A DNA stretch of 32,000 nucleotides from NCBI GenBank assembly GCA_963761445.1, contig CAVXHV010000018.1, positions 545,359 through 577,358 on the forward strand, given 5' to 3'. The stretch comes from an uncultured Planctomycetota bacterium. Its GTDB lineage: Bacteria > Planctomycetota > Planctomycetia > Isosphaerales > Isosphaeraceae. This document shows, piece by piece, positions 11,189-28,136 of the stretch; position 1 is the first letter of the stretch, and each line of letters starts with the position of its first letter. The notes below the pieces were generated by a model that did no database searches, had not been told where the DNA came from, and worked only from the letters and a program-made list of their open reading frames with translations. The position numbers and the translations under genes were made by a program.

Positions 11189-11668
11189 TGTCGTTGATCT
11201 AACTCGTTCCTCACCGGCGATTCAGTCCTTGGCGATCACGAACAACTGCAGGCTCCGCATCAGCCATTTGTCGCCTTGCTTTAAACGCATCTGAAAGTCT
11301 CCGAAGCAATGCTCGTCGGTCAGCAATCACGCAAAAACGTCCTCCAATTGATATCAAGAATCCATCGCTTAGTCGAGTCAGCGATCCGTTTCTCGGAGTC
11401 GGACTACGGCCTTGCGGCGATCACTCAAGGTCCCACCGGTTTGACCAGCTCGAACGAAACACTTACCGATCGTCCCATCCGACTGGCCTCCGATAACGAA
11501 AAAGACTCCGGTAACGAGCCAAACTCGGTCGGCTGGCGTACAATGAATGTAATGCTTGAAGCAGTCCGTTAATGCCACTAGACTCATTAGGGGGACGAGT
11601 GGCAAGACGTACGGGCTGCGTTGTATCGTGTTGTCGATAAGTTGTGCGACAGCGAGAGGAACGATTTC

Positions 11669-12829
11669 GTGGTGACCAAGCGGTGGCCTCTCCCGGTGGC
11701 CGTGTTGTTCAGTGGCGGCGAGACGCCGGGCATGAACGCATTTTTGCGAAACGTCGTCTGCCTGGGCCTGAACCGGCACGGAGCTCATGTGCTGGGCGTG
11801 AAGGGTGGCTTCGCCGGGCTGGTGCAAAGTGCAAAGCGGGTGCGCTCCGGGGAATTGACCGTCGCCGGTATTCAGGCTGAAATCGCCGGCCACCCGGGTT
11901 TGGCGGGTCTACAGCGCCCCAGCCAGAGCTTGGTGCTCATGGATAGCGACTCGGTCGGTGGGCTGCTCGAGCGCGGAGGAATCGTCCTGGGGTGTTCGCG
12001 CTGTCCGGAGTTTGCGGATCCGGAGGTTCGGTGGCGCGCGATCGAGTTGCTGTGGAACCTTGGAGTTGGAGCGGTAGTCGTGTGCGGCGGCGACGGATCG
12101 CTGGCTGGGGCGGCGTGCTTGGCCAGGGAGTCGGAGTTACGAGTTGTGGGCGTGCCGGCGACACTTGACAACGACGTGCCGATGACGGAAATCGCCCTGG
12201 GGGTGGACACAGCCGCCAACACCTTGGCAGCGGCGCTCGGGCACTTTTCGGACACGGCCGCGGGTGGGTATCGGATCGTGGTGCTGGAGGTGACGGGCCG
12301 AAACAGCGGTGAGCTGGCGCGGATGGCGGCCCTGGCTTCCGGGGCGGAAATCGTGGTCACGCCCGAGTGCGGGTTGTTCACCATGAATAAGATCAATGAG
12401 ATCGCGGCAGAGCTCGAGCGGGCGATGCTCCGCGGACGCCGGCACGCGGTGGTGCTCGTCGCCGCAGGCGTGCTGCTCGACCCGCAACTGGATGGTCAGG
12501 CGAGCGCGAATCCGACGATGCAACTGGCGCGCGAGCTGAGCGCCTATTTTCGCGCGCGATCGAGCTCGCTTCCCGGCCTCGATGTACAAGGCTGCGTTCT
12601 CGGGTCCTTACCGCGGGGCGGCGCGCCCTTGGTAGCCGACCGGATCCTCGCCGCCCGGTTCGCCGAAGCGGCCTGGGAAGTGATCACCAGCCCCGACGAA
12701 CGCAGTGGCGTGCTGGGCATGCACAACGGGTTGATGCTCTCGCAGGATTTCAAAGGCCGGATCGATCCCGAGCGTACCGAATGTGCCCGAAGGTTCTATA
12801 AGCTGCAGAAGGACGTCAGTAAAGTATAG
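11669..12829 (+). CDS. Phosphofructokinase-family protein (divergent PfkA-like)
   Basis: VAVLFSGGETPGMNAFLRNVV, VVVCGGDGSLAGA, GVPATLDNDV, GVDTAANT, VLEVTGRNSGELA and LPRGGAP parallel the PfkA motifs GGDAPGMN, GGDGS, TIDND, MGR and QRGG, with substitutions. I chose the GTG at 11669 (GAGAGGA 8 nt upstream). The ORF is open from TTG 11621, so the start is uncertain. Confidence 0.75.
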   Translation: MVTKRWPLPVAVLFSGGETPGMNAFLRNVVCLGLNRHGAHVLGVKGGFAGLVQSAKRVRSGELTVAGIQAEIAGHPGLAGLQRPSQSLVLMDSDSVGGLLERGGIVLGCSRCPEFADPEVRWRAIELLWNLGVGAVVVCGGDGSLAGAACLARESELRVVGVPATLDNDVPMTEIALGVDTAANTLAAALGHFSDTAAGGYRIVVLEVTGRNSGELARMAALASGAEIVVTPECGLFTMNKINEIAAELERAMLRGRRHAVVLVAAGVLLDPQLDGQASANPTMQLARELSAYFRARSSSLPGLDVQGCVLGSLPRGGAPLVADRILAARFAEAAWEVITSPDERSGVLGMHNGLMLSQDFKGRIDPERTECARRFYKLQKDVSKV

Positions 12830-12909: not shown

Positions 12910-13917
12910 ATGACCGAGAGCGAACGAATTCATGTCAACGTATCGGTCGCCATTGTGACCGACCAGAACAAGCGGGTTCTGCTAACCTTCAACGACAACT
13001 GGGGGATGTTCACGCTACCCATGACCCGGCGCCTCCAGGGACACCGAACCAAGGAACCGGCAACGCGGGCGGCGATTCGGGCCGCGGCGGAGGTCCTCGG
13101 CGTGCCGGTCCGGCTGGCCGAGGAGGATCAAGGTCCGAAACGTGTGCTTGCCCGTCTCGAGTCAGGGCGGCAGCTCACGGACAAGATCTACACTTACTTT
13201 GTCTATCAGGTCGAGCCGCATCCTGACTTCGCTGACGGCCTTCAGATTCGTCAGCCGTTTCTCTGGCTCTCGCCGCACCTCATCCTCTCCGGAGCTTACG
13301 ACCCGATCTCTGAATCGGCAAGGTTCATCCTGCGCGAGGTGCTCGCGGATTTCGAGATCCCGGCGCGAATCCAGCACACCAGCGTCTTGATCGTCCAGCG
13401 CCAGCATCCGGAGCGCGGCCTCCAGTTCCTGATGCGTCTGAACCCCGACTGGGGATACACTCTTCCCGCCAAGCGCTGGCAACCGCCCGAGCCGGCCAGG
13501 CTCGAGGCTCGCTCCGCACTTGCTCTGGCCGCGGCCCAGCGCGTGGCGCGCGAAGAACTGGGGCTAGAGCCGGGGACGGACGTAACGCTCAGCCCCGCGA
13601 GGGCCCCCGAATTCACCACCCACGGTATGAGCCAGACCCAGAATATCCCCGCCTTCGGCGAGACGGATTACGTGCATTGCGTCTTCGACGCCACGCTGCT
13701 CCACGCCGATAAACTGCAATCCGATCGCGCCTTGGCCTGGGTCACGCCGCGTGAAATTGACTACCGCTGGGCCGCCTCGTCCCATGGCGAACAACGAGTA
13801 CCTCCGGGCCGCTCGGGCCGCATATCCCGCACGGCCTACGACATCCTCGTGCACGAGGGATTGATTCCAGAAGAGGACGAACCCGATATCGATGAGCTTG
13901 GCGGTGTTCGAGGATAG
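12910..13917 (+). CDS. Hypothetical protein with two tandem Nudix-fold-like modules carrying eroded Nudix boxes (335 aa)
   Basis: ATG with GGGAG 7 nt upstream. Module 1: VSVAIVTDQNKRVLLTFNDNWGMFTLPMTRR...EPATRAAIRAAAEVLGV. Module 2: TSVLIVQRQHPERGLQFLMRLNPDWGYTLPAKR...AAAQRVAREELGL. Against the Nudix box RE[LIV]xEExG[LIV] these read RAAAEVLGV and RVAREELGL, and PGG is replaced by PMT and PAK. Confidence 0.55.
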   Translation: MTESERIHVNVSVAIVTDQNKRVLLTFNDNWGMFTLPMTRRLQGHRTKEPATRAAIRAAAEVLGVPVRLAEEDQGPKRVLARLESGRQLTDKIYTYFVYQVEPHPDFADGLQIRQPFLWLSPHLILSGAYDPISESARFILREVLADFEIPARIQHTSVLIVQRQHPERGLQFLMRLNPDWGYTLPAKRWQPPEPARLEARSALALAAAQRVAREELGLEPGTDVTLSPARAPEFTTHGMSQTQNIPAFGETDYVHCVFDATLLHADKLQSDRALAWVTPREIDYRWAASSHGEQRVPPGRSGRISRTAYDILVHEGLIPEEDEPDIDELGGVRG

Positions 13918-14024
13918 TCGCAGCTATTATGATCTTGCCCTGAGCCGGCTGGCGCCTTGTGAAATCCGCATGGCCAGGAGCAGTCGGGATCAGATCTGCC
14001 GGCTCTTTTGCAGGGGGAATGTTG

Positions 14025-14681
14025 ATGCCGTTGCGTTCGCTACATGTCGTGCACCTGCTCGTCCGGCACAACCGTCCGGATGGACAGACCGGTTTTCTGG
14101 TCTATCCCCACGAGCACTGGAAGGCCCCCGATGGCCAGCCGTACTTCGCCCTGCCGGCGAAGAAAACGGCGAGCGACCCGCTGGCCGAGCTCATCGAAGG
14201 CACGCCGCTCGATGGTTACGTCCAGGAGATCGCCTTGAAGGAATGGGGAATGCCATCGGACGCCTTTGCCGTGGACCAGGAATTCGAACCGGCAGAGTGG
14301 ACGATGCCTTCATCAGGACAGAAGGACGACGACTACCGCGCGCTGCCGACGCGATTTACGGTCCATCCGGTCGAGATCTGGCTGGCTCCCGAGCACCGCG
14401 AGCCGCTGCAGCAGCGCTTGCATGGTCGCTGGCTCACCGCACCTGAGGTGCTCGAGGAGCCGCGGCTCTCGCCAACGGCCCGGGGAGTATTCGTCGAGCT
14501 CACGAAGCGGCATGAACACCTCCAGTCGCATCCTCCCGGCCCCGAAGAAAAACACAAAGCGCAGCAGGCCGAGGCCCTCGCCCGTCTGTTCGGTCCGGTG
14601 TCTGACCGCCCCGGTACCGACGCCCGGCCGCGAGCTCTGCGCCACGGGGAAGGCGCAGGCGCGCACTTTGCCGGTGCATGA
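14025..14681 (+). CDS. Hypothetical protein with one Nudix-fold-like module (eroded box) and a low-complexity tail
   Basis: SLHVVHLLVRHNRPDGQTGFLVYPHEHWKAPDGQPYFALPAKK...LDGYVQEIALKEWGM has the same W/LPAK/helix-G layout as the two modules of the upstream protein. ATG 14025 has AGGGGGA 6 nt upstream. Alternative starts are ATG 14019 and GTG 13959. Confidence 0.5.
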   Translation: MPLRSLHVVHLLVRHNRPDGQTGFLVYPHEHWKAPDGQPYFALPAKKTASDPLAELIEGTPLDGYVQEIALKEWGMPSDAFAVDQEFEPAEWTMPSSGQKDDDYRALPTRFTVHPVEIWLAPEHREPLQQRLHGRWLTAPEVLEEPRLSPTARGVFVELTKRHEHLQSHPPGPEEKHKAQQAEALARLFGPVSDRPGTDARPRALRHGEGAGAHFAGA

Positions 14682-14772
14682 AGTCGGAGCAAGCTGCGGG
14701 ATTGAATCGAGGGAAGGCAAAACAGCGCACACGGCCCCTCCACAATCGCAAGGTGCTGCATCGAGCGATGAG

Positions 14773-15777
14773 ATGCACGATACCGAAGCCGATATGGCGC
14801 GCTGGCCGGCGCTTGAGCCGATGCTCAGGACGTGTGCTGAGGTCGTCGAGCCCGCGTTCCGCAGGGTCGATAAGGCGGCGCTGCGGCATCAGTGGAGTCA
14901 CCGGCAGCTTACCAAACTGGCAACGGTCTTCGGCGCCGCCGCGGTCATCTTCGCGATACTCCAGCTTGCCTTCGCCGACATGATCGGGGCGCACGTGCTC
15001 ACGATGCCCGAGCTCATCGCGGTGGTGCTTGCGTTCCTTGCCGTCGGGCTGGGAATTCGTGTCGCGTTTCAGGCCAACTGGCTGCTCGCCCGCAACAAGG
15101 CCGAGCGGCTCCGGCTTGCCAAGTTTCGGTTCCTGATTGATCCAGATCTTTGGAGTGGCGGCCCCAGCGTGCAGGCTCGAAAACGCGCGGAGCTGGAAGA
15201 AAAAGTCAGGATGATCCAGCAAAGCCGCCCTTCTGATCTGCATCACTGGGTCGAGCGCGACACCGTCCCCGACCCGCCACCTCCGGTGCTGGCCCTGCGT
15301 GCGCTGCCGCCCTCCGGCGGCGAGCTGCTCGATTACTACCGCACGCGGCGATTGCATTTTCAGCTCGCCTTCTTCCGCAAACGAGCCGACCAGAACTTCG
15401 CGATCAACAAATACACAAAACTCCTGTCGCCGATCCTGTTCTTCGGCAGCGTCGGGGCCGTCCTGATTCACTTCGGCTCCGACTTGAGGACCGGGGATGA
15501 AAAGCTCGACACCCTCAGCCGCTGGTTGATCGTGCTCGCGGCGTCGCTGCCGGTTTTAGGCGGAACGATTCGCACGTTCCACACCGCCTACGGGTTTGCG
15601 CCGAACACATACCGCTATCGGGCCAAGGCGGTCGCGCTGGCATCCATCGACTCGGTGCTGCAAAATGCGACCGACGCCGGCTCGCAGTTCCTCGAGCTTT
15701 GGCTCTGCGAAGAGACCCTCGAGACGGAACATCGCGAATGGCTGCGGCTCATGCTGGAAGCGGAGTGGTTCGCATGA
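14773..15777 (+). CDS. Four-TM membrane protein built from two SLATT/DUF4231-like 2TM units (334 aa)
   Basis: The predicted TM helices are LATVFGAAAVIFAILQLAF, LIAVVLAFLAVGLGIRVAF, LLSPILFFGSVGAVLIHFG and WLIVLAASLPVLGGTIRTF. Each pair is followed by an amphipathic helix (QANWLLARNKAERLRLAKFRF; NTYRYRAKAVALASI). The second pair is preceded by YYRTRRLHFQLAFFRKRADQNFAINKY, as in SLATT/DUF4231 families. The first ATG after the upstream stop is at 14773 and its SD is weak. The 169 codons upstream in ORF 14266..15777 are junk that overlaps the previous gene. Confidence 0.55.
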   Translation: MHDTEADMARWPALEPMLRTCAEVVEPAFRRVDKAALRHQWSHRQLTKLATVFGAAAVIFAILQLAFADMIGAHVLTMPELIAVVLAFLAVGLGIRVAFQANWLLARNKAERLRLAKFRFLIDPDLWSGGPSVQARKRAELEEKVRMIQQSRPSDLHHWVERDTVPDPPPPVLALRALPPSGGELLDYYRTRRLHFQLAFFRKRADQNFAINKYTKLLSPILFFGSVGAVLIHFGSDLRTGDEKLDTLSRWLIVLAASLPVLGGTIRTFHTAYGFAPNTYRYRAKAVALASIDSVLQNATDAGSQFLELWLCEETLETEHREWLRLMLEAEWFA

Positions 15778-15822
15778 CTCGCGTAGATCGATACGCACTG
15801 TTCAATTGAATTGAGGTGACTG

Positions 15823-16113
15823 ATGACTTACGAACCTCATCCTATCGACACGGACCCCGTCAAGCTTTCCCCGGAAATCGTCGCCTTGACCGAGCGGCTG
15901 GCGGCGCATTCTCACGATATCTGGGCCAGACAGCGCATCAAAGACGGCTGGAAGTTCGGTCCCGCCCGGAATGACCCCAACAAAGAGCACCCAAGCCTTG
16001 TGCCCTACGACCAGTTGTCCGAATCCGAGAAGCAGTACGACCGGAACGCGTCCTTGGAAACCATCAAGGCGATGCTGGCACTCGGCTACCAGATCACGCC
16101 GCCGCCTTCTTGA
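15823..16113 (+). CDS. Stand-alone RyR (ryanodine-receptor repeat, PF02026-like) domain protein (96 aa)
   Basis: LTERLAAHSHDIWARQRIKDGWKFGPARNDPNKEHPSLVPYDQLSESEKQYDRNASLETIKAMLALGYQI follows the RyR-domain consensus almost residue for residue. GAGG lies 6 nt upstream of the ATG. Confidence 0.8.
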   Translation: MTYEPHPIDTDPVKLSPEIVALTERLAAHSHDIWARQRIKDGWKFGPARNDPNKEHPSLVPYDQLSESEKQYDRNASLETIKAMLALGYQITPPPS

Positions 16114-16170: not shown

Positions 16171-16398
16171 TCACCGTGTTCCCGCCTGAGCTTCCCTGTA
16201 TAGTCCCTGAGCCTCGATGTAAGCTTCCACGCCGCGTGGGACCATGTAGCGGATGCTCTTGCCGTCGCGCACTCGCCGGCGAAGGTCGGTTGAGGCGATT
16301 CCGATCGGTGGGATCGTGACCGCCGTGATCGGGCGTGCGTCCTCACCGAAGGAAGGTAACGCGAGAGGGTCGGCCTCTTCGATGCCGGGGCGATTCAC
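16171..16398 (-). CDS. nadD: Nicotinate-nucleotide adenylyltransferase, C-terminal fragment (other frame)
   Basis: This frame reads IARLATIVVVNRPGIEEADP...IGIASTDLRRRVRDGKSIRYMVPRGVEAYIEAQGLY, which includes the conserved NadD C-terminal ISST.IR....G.SIRYLVP block. The frame stays open upstream of 16398 to the CG run at 16425-16433. Confidence 0.85.
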   Translation of the reverse strand: MNRPGIEEADPLALPSFGEDARPITAVTIPPIGIASTDLRRRVRDGKSIRYMVPRGVEAYIEAQGLYREAQAGTR

Positions 16399-16781
16399 GA
16401 CGACGATCGTCGCCAGCCGGGCGATGCGCGCGGCTCGCGCCAGCTCGGTAAATCGTTCAGGCTGTCGCCACCGATCAAGAAGAACAGGTCGTCCTCCGGC
16501 CGCTCGCGTGACACGTATTCCAGCGTCTCCACGCTGTAATGCGGGCCGGGCCGTATCGCCTCGATCTCCGAGACCGCAAACGACGGGTGGCCGGCGACCG
16601 CGATCCGCGCCATTTCGAGTCGATGAGCGACCGCTGTCCGCTCGCCGCGCTTGTGCGGTGGCTCGCCGGCCACCACAAACCAGACACGCTCGAGCTCACA
16701 ACTCTCGCGACACTGGTCCGCCAGGACGAGATGCCCCAGATGGATCGGGTCAAACGTGCCTCCGAAAATTCCCAGTCGCAT
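16395..16781 (-). CDS. nadD: Nicotinate-nucleotide adenylyltransferase, N-terminal fragment (apparent frameshift)
   Basis: ATG at 16781: MRLGIFGGTFDPIHLGHLVLADQCRE...VWFVVAGEPPHK...VSEIEAIRPGPHYSVETLEYV...FFLIGGDSLNDLPSWREPR, then junk and a stop at 16395. It carries the GxFxPxHxGH nucleotidyltransferase motif. Confidence 0.85.
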   Translation of the reverse strand: MRLGIFGGTFDPIHLGHLVLADQCRESCELERVWFVVAGEPPHKRGERTAVAHRLEMARIAVAGHPSFAVSEIEAIRPGPHYSVETLEYVSRERPEDDLFFLIGGDSLNDLPSWREPRASPGWRRSSS

Positions 16782-16973
16782 TTGCGAGAAACCCTCATGC
16801 GCCCGCCCGCTTGCGTGGAAAACGAATCGCCGCTGGGCGCCGTTTTGGCGTGGACAGACGCGCACTAAACGAGTGTATTAGATATTCAACGCGCCGTCAC
16901 TCAGGTCTTGGCCGGACTGCGTCACAATCGCTTTCCGCAGAACATCCCAACTCTACCGCGACAGGTCATCAGA

Positions 16974-22338: not shown

Positions 22339-23979
22339 TCACCCGCTCCGGCCGGCTTTCATCTTCCGGAACCGATCTATCAGCGCATTGGTCGAGCTGT
22401 CATGACCGAGCTTCGCCTCGTCCTTGCTTTGCAGCTCGGGAATGATTTTCTTCGCCAGCGCTTTGCCGAGCTCGACGCCCCACTGGTCGAACGAGTTGAT
22501 CTCCCAGATCGTTCCCTGGGTGAACACGCTGTGTTCGTAAAGCGCGACCAGTGAACCCAGCACTTCCGGAGTGAGCCGCTCGCCCAGGATCACGTTCGTC
22601 GGCCGGTTGCCTTCAAACGTGCGGTGGGGGATCAGGAAATCGTCGACGCCCTCAGCCTTGAGCTGTTCGGCCGTCTTGCCGAACGCGAGCGCCTCGGCCT
22701 GAGCAAAGACGTTCGACATCAGCAGGTCGTGGTGGTCGCCCAACGGATTGAGCGAATGCCCGAACCCGATCAAGTCGCAGGGAATCAGCCGGGTTCCCTG
22801 ATGGATGAGCTGGTAGAACGAATGCTGGCCGTTCGTGCCGGGCTCGCCCCAGTAGACCGGCCCGGTCTGATACGCGACCCGCCGCCCGTCGAGCGTCACA
22901 CTCTTGCCGTTGCTCTCCATCGTCAACTGCTGAAGATAAGCCGGGAATCGCTTCAAGTACTGATCATATGGCAAAACGGCCGTCGTCTCCGCTCCCAGGA
23001 AGTCAGTGTACCAGACCGAAAGGAGCCCCATGAGCACCGGCAGATTCCGCTCGAATGGCGTCGTGCGAAAATGTTCGTCCATCGAGTGGAAGCCGTCGAG
23101 CATTCTCTGGAAATTGTCCGGGCCGATCGCGATCATCGTCGAGAGCCCGATCGCGGAATCCATCGAGTATCGCCCGCCGACCCAGTCCCAGAACCCGAAC
23201 ATGTTGGCCGTGTCGATCCCGAACTTGCTCACTTCGTCGTGATTGGTCGAAACCGCGACGAAATGGCGGGCCACCGCCTGTGAGTCTGCAAGCGCACGCA
23301 AGCTCCACTCGCGGGCCGTGCGGGCGTTGGTCATCGTCTCCAGCGTCGTGAATGTCTTGGACGAGATGATGAACAACGTTTCGGCCGGATCGAGGTCGAT
23401 CGTCGCCTCGGCGAAGTCGGTACCATCGACGTTCGACACGAAGCGGAACCGGAGCGCACGCTCGCTGTAATGCTTGAGCGCCTCATAAGCCATCACCGGC
23501 CCCAGGTCGGAGCCGCCGATGCCGATGTTGATGACGTTGCGGATCGGACGCCCGGTGTGGCCCTTCCATTCGCCACTCCTGATCCTCGAGGCAAACGTCG
23601 CCATCCGATCGAGCACCTCATGCACCTGCGGCACGACATCTTCGCCGTCGACCAGAATCGATTGTCCTCTCGGCGCGCGAAGCGCAACGTGCAGTACCGC
23701 GCGGCCCTCGGTGACGTTGATCTTCTCGCCCCGGAACATCGCGTCGATACGCTCGCGCAGCCCCGATTCCTCGGCGAGATTCTTGAGGAGGTGAAGGGTC
23801 TCATCGGTCACGCGATTCTTGGAATAGTCGAGGAAGAGACCGGCCCCGGAGGCGGTCAAGCGCTCGCCCCGGCCGGGGTCATCGTGGAATAAGCCGCGGA
23901 GATGCACCGCGATCGACTTCTGATGATGTTCTTCGAGTGCGCGCCAGGCCGGGCACTCGCGCAGAGGCTTCCGTATCAT
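22339..23979 (-). CDS. pgi: Glucose-6-phosphate isomerase
   Basis: ATG at 23979 ([20 protein letters not shown]...). Full-length PGI similarity: [68 protein letters not shown]. The 198 codons upstream in ORF 22339..24573 overlap pgm and are junk. Confidence 0.95.
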
Positions 23980-24014
23980 CGTCGGGCTCCAGGTGCAGGG
24001 ATGGTCTCGGGCCG

Positions 24015-24638
24015 TCAAGTGCTCAAAGCGTCGGTCACGATGCGCTGGGCTTCCGCGATGATGGCATCCAGGTGGGCCTGGTCGCGGAAGCTCTCGGCAT
24101 AGATCTTGTAGATATTCTCGGTGCCCGAAGGACGCGCTGCAAACCAGCCCGTCGCAGCGACGACCTTCAACCCGCCGATGGGGGCCCCGTTGGCCGGTGC
24201 GCGGGTCAGCTTGGCCACAATCGGCTCGCCGCCAAGGTCCGATGCTTTGACGTCCGACGGATCGAGCTTCTTCAGGCGCGCCTTCTGCTCGGGGGTCGCC
24301 TCCGCATCGATTCGCGTGTAGAACGGTGTACCGAACTCCTTGGTGAGCTCGTGGTAGTGCTCGCCCGGATCCTTGCCGGTCCGGGCGAGAATCTCCGCGG
24401 CGAGCAGGTCGAGGATGGGCCCGTCCTTGTCGGTCGTCCACACCGAGCCGTCGCGCCGCAGGAAACTCGCGCCGGCGCTTTCCTCCCCACCGAAGCAATA
24501 CGAGCCGTCCAGCAGCTTGGCGCAAACCACTTGAACCCCACCGGAACTTCGGCGAGCGGCCGGTTGAGGGCATTCACAACCCGGTCGATCAAGCTGCTGC
24601 TCACAAGGGTCTTTCCCACCTTGGCATGCGCCGGCCAT
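24015..24638 (-). CDS. pgm: Phosphoglucomutase (alpha-D-glucose phosphate-specific), C-terminal fragment (other frame)
   Basis: [63 protein letters not shown]...[30 protein letters not shown] parallels the E. coli Pgm C-terminal third. The part of the listed ORF upstream of about 24520 is junk. Confidence 0.9.
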
Positions 24639-25657
24639 TGGTCGCGGTGCGTGAGCAGATAGCGGATCGCGACGGCCAGATAATGGTTAGGGTTCATGAG
24701 GCCCGTGGACTTGGTGACAATCCCGTGCCGGTCGGAATCGGGGTCGTTCCCGAAGGCGACGTCAAACCGGTCCTTGAGCTTGACCAGACTGGCCATCGCA
24801 AACGGACTGGAACAATCCATCCGGATCTCGCCGTCATGGTCGAGCGTCATGAAACGGAATGTTGGATCGATCGCCGCGTTTGTGACCGTGATATCGAGGT
24901 CATAACGATCGGCGATCGGCTGCCAGTAATGAACGGCCGCCCCGCCCAGGGGGTCGACCCCGATCTTGACCTTCGCGGCCCGGATTGCCGGCATATCGAT
25001 GACGCTCGCCAGGTCGGCGACGTAGGGCTCGACAAAATCGACCTCGAGGGTGGTGCTCGCCCTGATCGCCGCGGCAAACGGCACACGCTTGATCGAGTCG
25101 ATGCCCGAGCGAAGCAGGCTGTTGGCGCGGTCCTCGATCCAGGAGGTGACGTCCGAGTCGGCTGGGCCGCCGTGCGGCGGGTTGTACTTGAACCCGCCGT
25201 CGCGGGGTGGGTTGTGGGACGGCGTGATCACGATGCCGTCGCACCTCCCGGTTGTGCGGCCGGAGTTATACGACAAGATCGCGTGCGAGATCACCGGTGT
25301 CGGTGTCACACCGTCGTCACGCTGCAGAATGGTCTCGACGCCCGCCGCGGAAAGCACTTCGAGCGCCGTTCGCTGCGCCGGCTCGGAAAGCGCATGCGTA
25401 TCCTTTCCCATGAACAGAGGACCGTCGATTCCGCTCATTTTGCGGTAATCGCAGATGGCCTGGGTCATGGCCACGATGTGCGACTCGGTGAAGGTGCAAT
25501 CGAGCGATGAGCCGCGGTGGCCGCTGGTGCCGAAGATCACCCGCTGCGCCGGCTCGGTGGGGTCGGGCCGATTGGCGTGATAGGCTCGCTCGAGCGCCGG
25601 CACATCGATCAGAGCGCTCTCGGGCGCGGGCTGTCCCGCCAGAGGATGATTGGCCAT
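24272..25657 (-). CDS. pgm: Phosphoglucomutase, N-terminal fragment (apparent frameshift)
   Basis: ATG at 25657 with AGGAG 8 nt upstream. Motifs seen: [10 protein letters not shown] (active-site Ser loop), [62 protein letters not shown]. After that the frame is junk to the stop at 24272. Confidence 0.9.
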
Positions 25658-25670
25658 CACGCTGCTCCTG

Positions 25671-28136
25671 TCATTCGACGTGGCACGGTTTGGTTCCCCA
25701 GATCTCGCTCGCGTACTGGGCAATCGTGCGATCGCTCGAGAACTTGCCCGAATGCGCGACGTTGAGCACAGCCCGCTGCGTCCACGCTTCCGGCTTCAAG
25801 TAAAGCGCGCCGAGGGAGTCCTGCGTCTGCCCGTAGCCGGCCAGATCGGCAAGGTGCATGTAGTGGTCGCCGCGGGGCAGCAGAGTGTCCCAGATCGGGC
25901 CGAAAATCCCCGGCTCGTGCGGACTGAAGGCGTTCGATGCGATCATGTCGAGCGCCCGCCGAGTCTCGGGCTCATGCTCGTAGTGCCAGTACGGGTTGTA
26001 CCACGATCGGCTCGATGCGACTTCTTCGGCGGTCAGACCGAATAGGAAGAAATTCTCTTCTCCCGCCTCCTGGGCCATCTCGATCGTGGCGCCGTCACGG
26101 GTCCCCACGGTCAAAGCGCCGTTCATCATGAACTTCATGTTGCCCGTGCCGCTGGCCTCGAAGCCGGCGGTCGAGATCTGCTCCGAAACGTCACTGGCGG
26201 GAATCAGCCGCTGGGCCAGGGTCACGTTGTATTCGCTCAGGAAGAAGACCTGGATCTTGCCCTTGGATAGGGGATCGACGTTGACCACCGAGGCAACATT
26301 GTTGATCAGCTTGATGATCAGCTTCGCCAGTGTGTACGCCGGCGCCGCCTTGCCCGCGAAGAAGAAGGTGCGCGGCGGTACTTCCAGCTTGGGATTGTCG
26401 CGCAGCCGATTGTATAAAATGATAACGTGAAGAATATTTAGTAACTGTCGTTTGTATTCATGGATGCGCTTCACCTGGCTATCGAAGATGGAATCGGGGT
26501 CGACGGCCAGTCCCGTCCCCATGCGCAGCCAGGAAGCAACGCGCACCTTGGCCGCCCGCTTGGCCGCGCGGAAGCCGTCCAGGAAGCCTGTGTCCTCCGC
26601 CAGCGGCACGAGCTTCTTGAGCTGGCTGAGATCGGCTATCCAGTCGTCGCCGATGGCGCTCGAAATCAATTTGGCCAGGTCGGGGTTGGCCAGGAGCAGC
26701 CAGCGCCTGGGCGTCACGCCGTTGGTCTTGTTGTTGAAGCGAGCCGGAAAGATCGCGGCCAGGTCCGAGACGACCGTGGTACGCAACAGCCTCGAGTGGA
26801 TCTCGGCGACCCCGTTGGTGCTGTGCGTGCCCACGATGGCCAGGTTCGCCATGCGGACCCGTTTTTCCCGGCCCTCCGAAATCAGGCTGACGCGCGCCAG
26901 GCGGCCGTTGTCGCCGGGAAACCGCGTTCGAACGTCGTCCAGAAAGCGACGGTTGATCTCGTAAATGATTTCGAGCAGCCGGGGAAACATGATCTCGAAG
27001 AGGTTTACCGGCCAGGTCTCAAGCGCTTCCGGCATCAGGGTGTGGTTGGTGTAGGCCAGGGTGCGCGTGGTCAGGTCCCATGCCTCGTCCCAGGGGATCG
27101 CCGCTTCGTCCACCAGGATCCTCATCAGCTCGGCGACTGCGAGCGACGGGTGAGTGTCGTTCAACTGAATGGCCACCTTGTCCGGAAGCGCGTGCCACTC
27201 ATTGCCGCGCCGCTTGAATCTCGCGACGATGTCTCCAAGCGAGCACGCGACCAGGAAGTATTCTTGTAGCAGCCGAAGGTTTCTGCCCCGGGGCGTCGAG
27301 TCATCGGGGTAAAGCACGCGTGTCACCACCTCGGCGGCAACCTTGTCGTGGACAGCATCGAAGAAATCACCCCGGCTGAATTCCAGGAAGTTGAAGTCGT
27401 CGTGGCTCGTGGAAGTCCAGAGCCGCAGCGTGTTGATGTTGCTGCCGCCGTAGCCGACGACGGGACGATCATATGGCACGCCGACGATCACGGTCGGCAC
27501 GTTGGGAACCACCGTCAGTCGCCCTTCCTTCATCTGGAAGGCACAGTTGAGACGAACTTCGACAGCCTCTCGCGGCCGCATGACCTCCCACGGATCGCCA
27601 TGACGCAGCCAGTTGTCCGGGTGTTCGATCTGCCTTCCGTCCTTGATCTCCTGGCGGAACATCCCGTACTCGTATCGCAGGCCGTATCCCACCGCCGGAA
27701 TCTCAAGGGTCGCCATCGAGTCCAGAAAACAGGCGGCCAGGCGGCCCAGGCCGCCGTTGCCCAGTCCAGCGTCCGGCTCAACTTCGTAAAGCGCCTGCAG
27801 GTCCTGCCCGATGTCCGAGGCGAAGTCGCTTTCCACGAAATCCTCGATCTGCAGATTGGTGATCGTGCTGGCCATGGTTCTACCGATCAGGAACTCCATT
27901 GACAGGTAATACACCTCCTTCGGGTTCTTGTGGTCGTAAGACCGCTGCGTCAAAATCCAGCGCTGCGCGAGCACGTCTCGGACCGAGTGCGCCATGGCCG
28001 CAAACCGGTCGCGCGCGCTTGCCCGGTCCAGCGCGGTGACGTGGTCGAAAAGAAGATGCCGGTCGTAGTAGTCCTCATCGTCAAATCGCAGCGGACCACA
28101 TTCATAGCGCTTCAAAGGATCGGCCGTCTGGTTCAT
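25671..28136 (-). CDS. glgP: Glycogen/maltodextrin phosphorylase
   Basis: Full-length similarity, including [20 protein letters not shown], the ...NDTHP... block, and the PLP site [29 protein letters not shown] chose the ATG at 28136 (GGAG 7 nt upstream). The alternative ATG at 28184 would overlap the upstream stop as ATGA. Confidence 0.93.

Follow-up and report, generated by a model that had tools for sequence, protein, structure and literature searches.

A RyR-domain protein and a tandem-SLATT membrane protein in a variable planctomycete island: a candidate second-messenger-gated membrane effector

A 32-kb stretch of contig CAVXHV010000018.1 (assembly GCA_963761445.1) from an uncultured Planctomycetota bacterium of the family Isosphaeraceae, referred to here as the window and numbered from its first base, carries a cassette of open reading frames (ORF1–ORF4; Table 1) that encode two Nudix-fold proteins (ORF1 and ORF2), a tandem-SLATT membrane protein (ORF3) and a stand-alone RyR-domain protein (ORF4). 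The conserved core of this cassette is the pair of RyR and tandem SLATT, not the set of four genes. Judged from sequence and predicted structure, the locus is a candidate second-messenger-gated membrane effector of the Thoeris/SLATT kind, a reading given a probability of roughly 0.55; it most likely represents a signal-triggered suicide or defence module of an undescribed kind within Thoeris/SLATT-type signalling immunity.

Relatives of ORF3 were collected by a pattern scan over one genome per GTDB species, which returned 76 loci: 39 in Acidobacteriota, 13 in Planctomycetota, 6 in Verrucomicrobiota, and others in Lentisphaerae, Vulcanimicrobiota, Gemmatimonadota, Myxococcota, Dormibacterota, Nitrospirae, Chloroflexota, Bacteroidota and six archaeal metagenome-assembled genomes. 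Of these loci, 55 have an RyR coding region no more than 400 nt away from the SLATT gene; they span about 12 phyla (among them Acidobacteriota, Planctomycetota, Verrucomicrobiota, Gemmatimonadota, Myxococcota, Dormibacterota, Vulcanimicrobiota and the Methanoperedens/Halobacteriota archaea). RyR is upstream of SLATT in 53 of these 55 loci, the order SLATT-then-RyR being found only in the window's own clade, and it is fused to the SLATT N-terminus in eight loci; when N-terminally extended members of the SLATT family were sampled from an exhaustive profile search, seven of ten proved to be RyR fusions. ORF1 and ORF2 were not found beside SLATT in the scanned loci outside one planctomycete lineage, and the four-gene cassette is therefore rejected as a conserved cross-phylum unit. 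A preliminary description of this DNA, made from its letters alone, had proposed the four genes as one system; as a set they do not co-occur beyond that lineage, and it is SLATT with RyR, adjacent or fused across phyla, that emerges as the functional unit.

The position that RyR occupies at the SLATT N-terminus can be filled by other domains. A Nudix-fold domain takes it in L088–L091 (L-numbers denote related loci or contigs), and a domain of ~200 aa with the motif G-x-T-G-H-R ... G-A-D-x-L is fused to the tandem SLATT in P0230, P0293 and P0303 (P-numbers denote members of the ORF3 SLATT family); its sole match, a weak one (E 0.01), is to YAcAr of the YspA/cpYpsA SLOG family. The same type of domain stands alone, beside a patatin, at L036:4983-5522. 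The 'SLOG' labels given by eye to clusters of neighbouring genes were not confirmed by Pfam, and one of these clusters, number 23, proved to be TPR-S-cyclase in part.

ORF3 has four hydrophobic segments arranged in two hairpins (Kyte-Doolittle, 19-residue window; Table 1), the first covered by the SLATT_3/DUF4231 hidden Markov models (HMMs) and the second by that of SLATT_1, in agreement with the two units of two transmembrane helices (2TM) that had been recognised in the letters. Of the 108 homologues of ORF3 that were found, many carry precomputed PF18181, PF18184 or PF14015 matches, and the SLATT assignment is supported by clear homologues that pass the curated cut-offs (SLATT_1 33.8 and DUF4231 30.6 in L013; DUF4231 34.7 in P0260). 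The family, which comprises 475 representative clusters at E ≤ 1e-30, has a C-terminal motif of its own (E-H-R-E-W-L-R-L-M). A scan of IMG/VR viral contigs recovered no relatives of it; a phage origin is accordingly rejected and the system is taken to be cellular.

ORF4 matches the Pfam RyR family (PF02026) at E 2.6e-34 over profile positions 1–90 of 91, as its earlier designation as a near-consensus RyR domain would lead one to expect, and can be aligned over its full length with each of the four animal RyR1–3 repeats; it also aligns with the solved B. thetaiotaomicron protein 3NRT. Phage RyR-domain proteins bind 2'/3'cADPR (isomers of cyclic ADP-ribose, cADPR) at nanomolar affinity, or cleave them, by means of residues H75, W78, H100 and D117 (PMC13232231, May 2026 preprint), and this work renders outdated the earlier remark that no function has been assigned to bacterial RyR domains; it does not discuss RyR-domain proteins of cells that are coupled to membrane effectors. 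Residues H31, W34, H56 and D73 of ORF4 align with those four positions of the phage protein RyDEP (represented by DyoEdafos gp78; identity ~27%), and the HWHD tetrad is present in 49 of the 55 SLATT-adjacent RyR genes. ORF4 is predicted to form a pocket for a ligand derived from adenine or ADP-ribose (ADPR). The RyR gene of L079 (7701-8000) is 88% identical to ORF4 and stands between less similar genes (PFK ~71%, ORF2 66%), which points either to RyR being more strongly constrained or to the gene having been exchanged recently.

Neighbour families were defined by unsupervised clustering of all ORFs in the loci. After RyR, the next commonest neighbour is a TIR_2 protein (E 1e-20 to 1e-22), which is found in 30 of 77 loci and is often the immediate neighbour, for instance in the order RyR-SLATT-TIR or as a TIR followed by an RyR-SLATT fusion. 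CapV-like patatins (PADLOC phospholipase effector match, 1e-43), TPR-S-guanylate-cyclase proteins and STAND NTPases also recur, and neighbours of 850–950 aa that adjoin the tandem SLATT gene join RelA/SpoT, a TRPM-type SLOG domain (LSDAT_prok) and a C-terminal RyR. These TIR_2 proteins, RelA/SpoT-SLOG-RyR giants and patatins bear out the nucleotide-signalling conflict context that had been proposed for the cassette. PADLOC-DB v2 (2023) gave no match at E ≤ 1 for ORF1–ORF4 and none for an RyR-SLATT fusion, as the preliminary description had expected of known systems, and NCBIfam gave no system-level match for the four proteins.

The four ORFs are co-directional, with gaps of 101, 91 and 45 nt, and lie between an upstream PFK-family gene and a convergent nadD; ORF positions and domain assignments agree with what had been described. 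The gene count, given earlier as four, is probably three: the ORFs are present, but ORF2 and ORF3 are split by a single base. In four independent metagenome contigs (L088–L091, ~94% identical DNA) they form one ORF of 583–585 aa. Global alignment of the window with L089 (4,073 columns) contains three indels only, each of 1 nt, namely an extra G in the window between the two frames and deletions at 16430 and 16839, in or beside nadD; the extra G is the sole indel inside the cassette genes when the window is compared with L089 and L090 (94.5% nucleotide identity). As assembled, ORF2 is out of frame with close relatives beyond residue ~213, and its ATG comes after a GGGGG stretch, the longest ORF beginning at GTG 13959. 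With the frame corrected, the ORF2-ORF3 translation is open throughout and collinear with the 583–585-aa proteins of L088–L091. The nadD gene, which is normally essential, lies in two frames in the window assembly, whereas L088 and L089 carry it intact at 203 aa. Because an essential gene is broken by similar 1-nt indels in the same window, the extra base most likely stems from the assembly and, if real, would be a very recent frameshift; ORF2 and ORF3 are probably a single gene. The three indels together suggest assembly indel errors in GC-rich runs. L089 and L090 match the window's order exactly (PFK, ORF1, fusion, RyR, nadD), and the arrangement PFK-ORF1-fusion-RyR is intact in three contigs besides the window.

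The C-terminal module of ORF1 (ORF1-C, residues ~151–335) matches Pfam NUDIX (PF00293) over residues 159–285 (E 4.6e-7; 30.4 bits vs. a cut-off of 21.1). The AlphaFold2 (AF2) model of ORF1 (pLDDT 88, pTM 0.84) consists of two repeats that share the same order of strands and helices, and hhalign relates the N-terminal module (ORF1-N, residues ~1–150) to ORF1-C with a probability of 81% (E 1e-5). ORF2 has no HMM match in Pfam, NCBIfam or PADLOC; its AF2 model (pLDDT 89, pTM 0.84) has 68 PDB matches at E ≤ 1e-3 (best E 3e-6), and profile comparison of ORF1-C with ORF2 gives E 4e-4 in a consistent register. For ORF1 and ORF2 alike, all 50 PDB matches listed by Foldseek are Nudix hydrolases or the Nudix-fold domain of MutY/MUTYH, the latter domain being non-catalytic. 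A profile search of ORF1 against PDB sequences produced no match, so that its relation to these structures is detectable by fold comparison only. The Nudix modules that had been assigned to the two proteins (two in ORF1, one in ORF2) are thus confirmed by AF2 models, Foldseek and hhalign, and by Pfam for ORF1-C. When the state of the Nudix boxes was judged by eye from family alignments, the canonical GX5EX7REUXEEXGU was intact in none of the three: ORF1-N is eroded to G-x4-E-x7-R-A-A-A-E-V-x-G-V, ORF2 has no box glutamate that is invariant across its family, and ORF1-C retains only R-x3-E-E-L-G (R-x3-E-E-x-G). The degraded boxes reported for all three modules hold for ORF1-N and ORF2, but this was an overstatement for ORF1-C, which may still be catalytic. 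All parts of the cassette are under purifying selection, with ratios of nonsynonymous to synonymous substitution rates (dN/dS) of 0.11–0.31 (ORF1 0.22 vs. L089; ORF2 domain 0.11–0.29; SLATT part 0.13; RyR 0.15–0.31; PFK, for comparison, 0.19), and the values for ORF2 rule out that it is a decaying pseudogene.

ORF2 corresponds by homology to the N-terminal half of ~370-aa proteins whose C-terminal half is cupin-like, and in the window it stops exactly where the cupin half would start. Distant full-length Nudix-cupin members adjoin TCAD9-domain and TPR proteins and occur without SLATT or RyR, so that the pairing of ORF2 with SLATT is not typical of its family, whose usual partner is TCAD9. The full-length homologues stand consistently beside TCAD9 proteins (TCAD9+APH, TCAD9+HD and TCAD9+TPR-S), at L081:9001-11446, L082-L084:9001-12963, L080:4539-8122 and L088:3143-5554; Nudix-cupin plus TCAD9 is a separate, uncharacterised system. 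A search of the literature on TPR-S and TCAD9 found nothing relevant.

Homologues of ORF1 are confined to one planctomycete lineage, with identities down to 36–41%, and a metagenome scan gave 8 loci only, mostly short. Every homologue found lies within ~10 kb of a RyR gene (L001, L077, L080, L085–L087, L089–L091 and L101), even where PFK is absent. It is directly 3' of an RyR-TPR-S-cyclase protein in L085, among TPR-S, RyR and TrkA_N genes in L087, where the locus has no PFK gene, and between a TrkA_N-RyR protein and a stand-alone RyR 65% identical to ORF4 in L101 (ORF1 identity 36%), where TCAD9+TPR-S and DUF4062-NB-ARC-TPR genes come next. Because ORF1 stands away from PFK and beside RyR, TCAD9 or TPR-S genes in these three loci, its interpretation as a mere PFK-linked housekeeping Nudix protein is ruled out as the sole explanation. 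The association of Nudix modules with SLATT and RyR proposed in the preliminary description is supported in two forms: a Nudix-fold domain physically fused to SLATT in close relatives, and ORF1 beside RyR down to 36% identity.

In related planctomycetes of the Isosphaerales type, the interval from PFK to nadD/PriA is a variable island, and the same PFK...PriA frame has differing contents in L078, L079, L080, L086 and L088–L090. The L080 island holds an ORF1-like gene, TIR-STAND-TPR, TCAD9, TPR-S, Nudix-cupin, a 501-aa gene, SLATT, RyR and a second TIR; L088 holds TCAD9+TPR-S, a Nudix-SLATT fusion, RyR and fragments of ORF1; L078 holds a Nudix-TIR-NB-ARC-TPR protein, TPR-S, a short ORF2 and RyR, with no SLATT; and L079 holds the short ORF2 and RyR only. 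The STAND protein of L078 (160-3923; Nudix + TIR_2 + NB-ARC + TPR) lies immediately 3' of PFK, in the same island position as ORF1, and its gene call is probably split by a frameshift. By these comparisons, the window contains a reduced island that has lost its TIR-STAND, TCAD9 and TPR-S genes, and the Nudix-fold genes are real, maintained accessories of RyR-containing conflict islands in one lineage, outside the universal core.

In the proposed mechanism, the four-transmembrane (4TM) tandem-SLATT protein would be the executioner, carrying in the window's lineage an N-terminal, catalytically eroded Nudix-fold domain, and the small RyR-domain protein, with its predicted ligand pocket, would be its obligate partner. 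Infection or stress would lead a TIR-type enzyme to produce a cADPR-type signal, in trans here, if at all, since there is no TIR in the 32-kb window. Binding of this signal by the RyR protein, the fused Nudix-fold domain or both would switch SLATT to a membrane-breaching state, RyR acting as either an activating or a restraining component, and the outcome would be abortive infection. ORF1 may serve as an accessory, binding ligands of this class or trimming them. The sensor would be RyR in most lineages, the Nudix fold in that of the window and possibly the SLOG-like domain in P0230, P0293 and P0303. The earlier idea of a nucleotide-gated SLATT protein and its link with RyR are supported by these data, but sensing centred on Nudix modules is not general, RyR being the most constant candidate sensor.

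Several observations weigh against this reading. No TIR lies within ~10 kb in 47 of the 77 loci, and none was detected in the 32-kb window by tblastn, a custom HMM or Pfam on all large ORFs; as noted before, the window also holds no other nucleotide synthase. Two TIRs of type VII Thoeris, taken from the supplement of the preprint that describes it (bioRxiv 10.64898/2025.12.03.692087), have no significant similarity to the TIR_2 cluster of the related loci. ORF3 itself is below the curated cut-offs in its three Pfam matches (scores of 22.6, 21.1 and 16.2 bits), which are to SLATT_3, DUF4231 and SLATT_1, and below that of NCBIfam SLATT_1 (NF033634; E 5e-9, 36.1 bits vs. a cut-off of 41). The Nudix-SLATT fusion is confined to a clade of ~94% identity and looks like a by-product of the deletion that removed the cupin half of ORF2. 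In a subclade of Acidobacteriaceae (L024, L044, L047, L049, L055, L057, L062, L064, L071, L074 and L075, with SLATT apparently fragmented in the last two), RyR-SLATT is part of a stable syntenic, vertically inherited block with DUF6982 and a PolyA_pol-type nucleotidyltransferase and without TIR. Finally, the H...D dyad of the RyDEP glycosidase is also conserved, and RyR could be a degrader of the signal and not its receptor.

Linear ADPR is a classic Nudix substrate. The conserved dyad also underlies the main rival, an unlikely one, in which the cassette clears the signal or sets its threshold: RyR would open cADPR isomers to ADPR, the Nudix proteins (ORF1-C especially) would bind or hydrolyse the ADPR, and SLATT would be kept silent in the manner of an antitoxin, or immunity switched off. 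Conservation of the catalytic dyad H31/D73 together with the ligand residues W34 and H56 is consistent with this, as are the release of linear ADPR by RyDEP (PMC13232231), the R-x3-EE-x-G of ORF1-C with its match over the Pfam NUDIX threshold, and the pair of short ORF2 and RyR that is kept without any SLATT in L078 and L079. However, N-terminal fusion of RyR to SLATT is typical of sensor-effector architecture, the signals were left uncleaved by seven out of eight further RyDEP homologues that were tested, although the residues are conserved in them (PMC13232231), and the boxes of ORF1-N and ORF2 are eroded.

Less likely again is a role outside defence, with RyR-SLATT regulating membrane potential or permeability as part of normal physiology, in response to endogenous nucleotide alarmones in stress or dormancy. 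Giants of the RelA/SpoT-SLOG-RyR type beside SLATT in at least 8 loci, TrkA_N-RyR proteins or pairs in L077, L087 and L101, the absence of PADLOC matches, and the stable, TIR-less chromosomal setting among housekeeping genes in Acidobacteriaceae and in the window would all suit such a role; it is harder to reconcile with the frequency of TIR, STAND NTPase, patatin, TCAD9 and TPR-S genes as neighbours and with islands that differ strongly among close relatives, as is typical of conflict systems. It is improbable that the cassette is a non-working remnant of a larger TIR-STAND/TCAD9/TPR-S/Nudix-cupin/SLATT/RyR island with a real frameshift at 14658, as the fuller islands of L080, L078 and L088, the lost cupin half, the missing TIR and the frameshift in the assembly might suggest, given that every part has a dN/dS near that of PFK, the arrangement is intact in three other contigs, and similar indels in essential nadD point to assembly error.

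Table 1. Features of the cassette and its borders (positions in the window; strand + or -)
Feature	Position	Strand	Description
PFK-family gene	11621-12829	+	Pfam PFK 7.9e-67; left border of the variable island
ORF1	12910-13917	+	335 aa, tandem Nudix-fold protein
ORF2 as assembled	14019-14681	+	220 aa; divergent, probably non-catalytic Nudix-fold domain, residues 1-~200
Reconstructed single gene	14019-15777	+	585 aa without base 14658: Nudix-fold domain, ~50-aa linker, tandem SLATT
Extra base	14658	+	G in GCAGGCGCGC; separates the ORF2 and ORF3 frames
ORF3	14773-15777	+	334 aa, tandem SLATT (two 2TM units); longest ORF from 14266
ORF3 first transmembrane hairpin	14917-15069	+	residues 49-67 and 81-99; Kyte-Doolittle peaks 2.28, 2.55
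ORF3 second transmembrane hairpin	15421-15570	+	residues 217-235 and 248-266; Kyte-Doolittle peaks 1.85, 1.57
ORF4	15823-16113	+	96 aa, stand-alone RyR (R12-type) domain
nadD	16171-16865	-	convergent context gene, outside the system; Pfam CTP_transf_like

The remaining genes of the window are housekeeping genes (PriA, PGI, PGM, glycogen phosphorylase, acetate kinase and ECF sigma factors), and G+C content is even throughout the region. Rfam, promoter and terminator scans of the cassette gave nothing that exceeded background. The PGI ORF (22339-24573, minus strand) has an N-terminal extension of ~248 aa without a Pfam match that overlaps the 3' end of the PGM ORF (24272-25723, minus strand); the extension probably reflects a start called wrongly upstream or a further problem of frame.

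Among the neighbours in related loci, RelA/SpoT-SLOG-RyR proteins are encoded at L005:7630-10155, L009:2594-5173, L017:7248-9863 and L034:6519-9182 and in L015, L016, L051 and L052, and one of them matches the PADLOC candidate PDC-S33 (7.7e-17). TPR-S-cyclase proteins lie directly upstream of the tandem SLATT gene, and RyR, TPR-S and a guanylate/adenylate cyclase are also found fused (loci for the two forms together: L085:5673-7964, L042:7790-9787, L040 and L012); such links of RyR with TPR-S-cyclase hint that two second messengers may be joined in a relay. RyR is combined with TrkA_N (RCK-type), either as two paired genes or as a fusion, at L077:3883-5671, L087:16418-17035 and L101:6741-8708, so that RyR domains also accompany regulatory domains of the potassium-channel type in these islands. 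In archaea (Methanomicrobia/Euryarchaeota), RyR-SLATT is followed by a TIR that carries a fused PsbP-like domain (L002:3143-4204, L004:11263-12297 and L008:11228-12265).

The combination of TIR with SLATT and the phage RyR proteins have been characterised only in preprints of 2025–2026, neither of which links the two. The comparative data supply such a link on the host side, with RyR as a near-constant partner or N-terminal domain of a large tandem-SLATT family. If RyR is the signal receptor, it would define a new Thoeris-like type, explain the RyR-domain decoys or enzymes found in phages, and offer a tractable model for the long-disputed direct action of cADPR on RyR-repeat domains. The Nudix-fold-SLATT fusion would be, alongside TRPM2, a second case in which a membrane-conductance protein is coupled to an eroded Nudix fold. 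A broader proposal, offered tentatively, is that RyR proteins are the cellular receptors of TIR-made cADPR-type signals in a widespread and so far undescribed prokaryotic immune module of TIR, RyR and tandem SLATT, in which RyR gates a membrane pore and Nudix-fold or SLOG-like domains are interchangeable sensors at that one position; such a module may be the prokaryotic antecedent of the control of animal RyR and TRPM2 channels by cADPR and ADPR.

The closest described system is type VII Thoeris, in which a TIR protein (ThsB) of the cADPR-producing cluster is paired with a SLATT effector (ThsH) that is activated by canonical cADPR, and a TPR domain is predicted to sense TIR signals (bioRxiv 10.64898/2025.12.03.692087, December 2025 preprint). 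RyR is unmentioned in the text of that preprint, and no paper in the literature searched names both SLATT and an RyR domain. The earlier statement that no described system has this composition is therefore partly outdated, TIR with SLATT being type VII Thoeris, but its remainder stands: the association of RyR with tandem SLATT, with or without TIR, was not found described. Shared with type VII are the SLATT-family membrane effector, adjacent TIR genes in ~40% of the related loci, an expected ADPR-derived cyclic signal and the logic of abortive infection; the likeness of ThsH to ORF3 is at the level of the SLATT family. Type VII Thoeris, however, has two genes and no RyR, whereas the related loci combine a tandem (4TM) SLATT with a near-constant RyR partner or fusion; and Thoeris of any type has its signal-producing TIR (ThsB) in the operon, as type VII does, whereas the window has none. 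Type II Thoeris consists of a TIR and a Macro-TM effector, in which a domain that binds an ADPR derivative is carried on membrane-disrupting transmembrane helices; the coupling of such a domain to transmembrane helices is shared, but the sensor there is a Macro domain and the membrane module is unrelated and not SLATT. SLOG/SMODS-SLATT conflict systems, which Burroughs et al. reportedly defined in 2015, are said to place a cytoplasmic nucleotide sensor and a 2TM SLATT effector beside a nucleotide-generating enzyme; the sensor-plus-SLATT logic would be the same here, with RyR or a Nudix fold in place of SLOG and with SLATT duplicated in tandem. Phage RyDEP shares PF02026 with ORF4, as well as four aligned ligand and catalytic residues, but is a viral counter-defence enzyme or sponge, whereas ORF4 is cellular and genetically coupled to a membrane effector. 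TRPM2, with its NUDT9-H domain, and the animal RyR channels are membrane-conductance proteins that bear an impaired Nudix fold or an RyR repeat and respond to ADPR or cADPR, an arrangement that the cassette would parallel, and prokaryotic neighbours of the tandem SLATT combine TRPM-type SLOG (LSDAT_prok) with RyR; the membrane parts are non-homologous, and the likeness would be one of architecture only.

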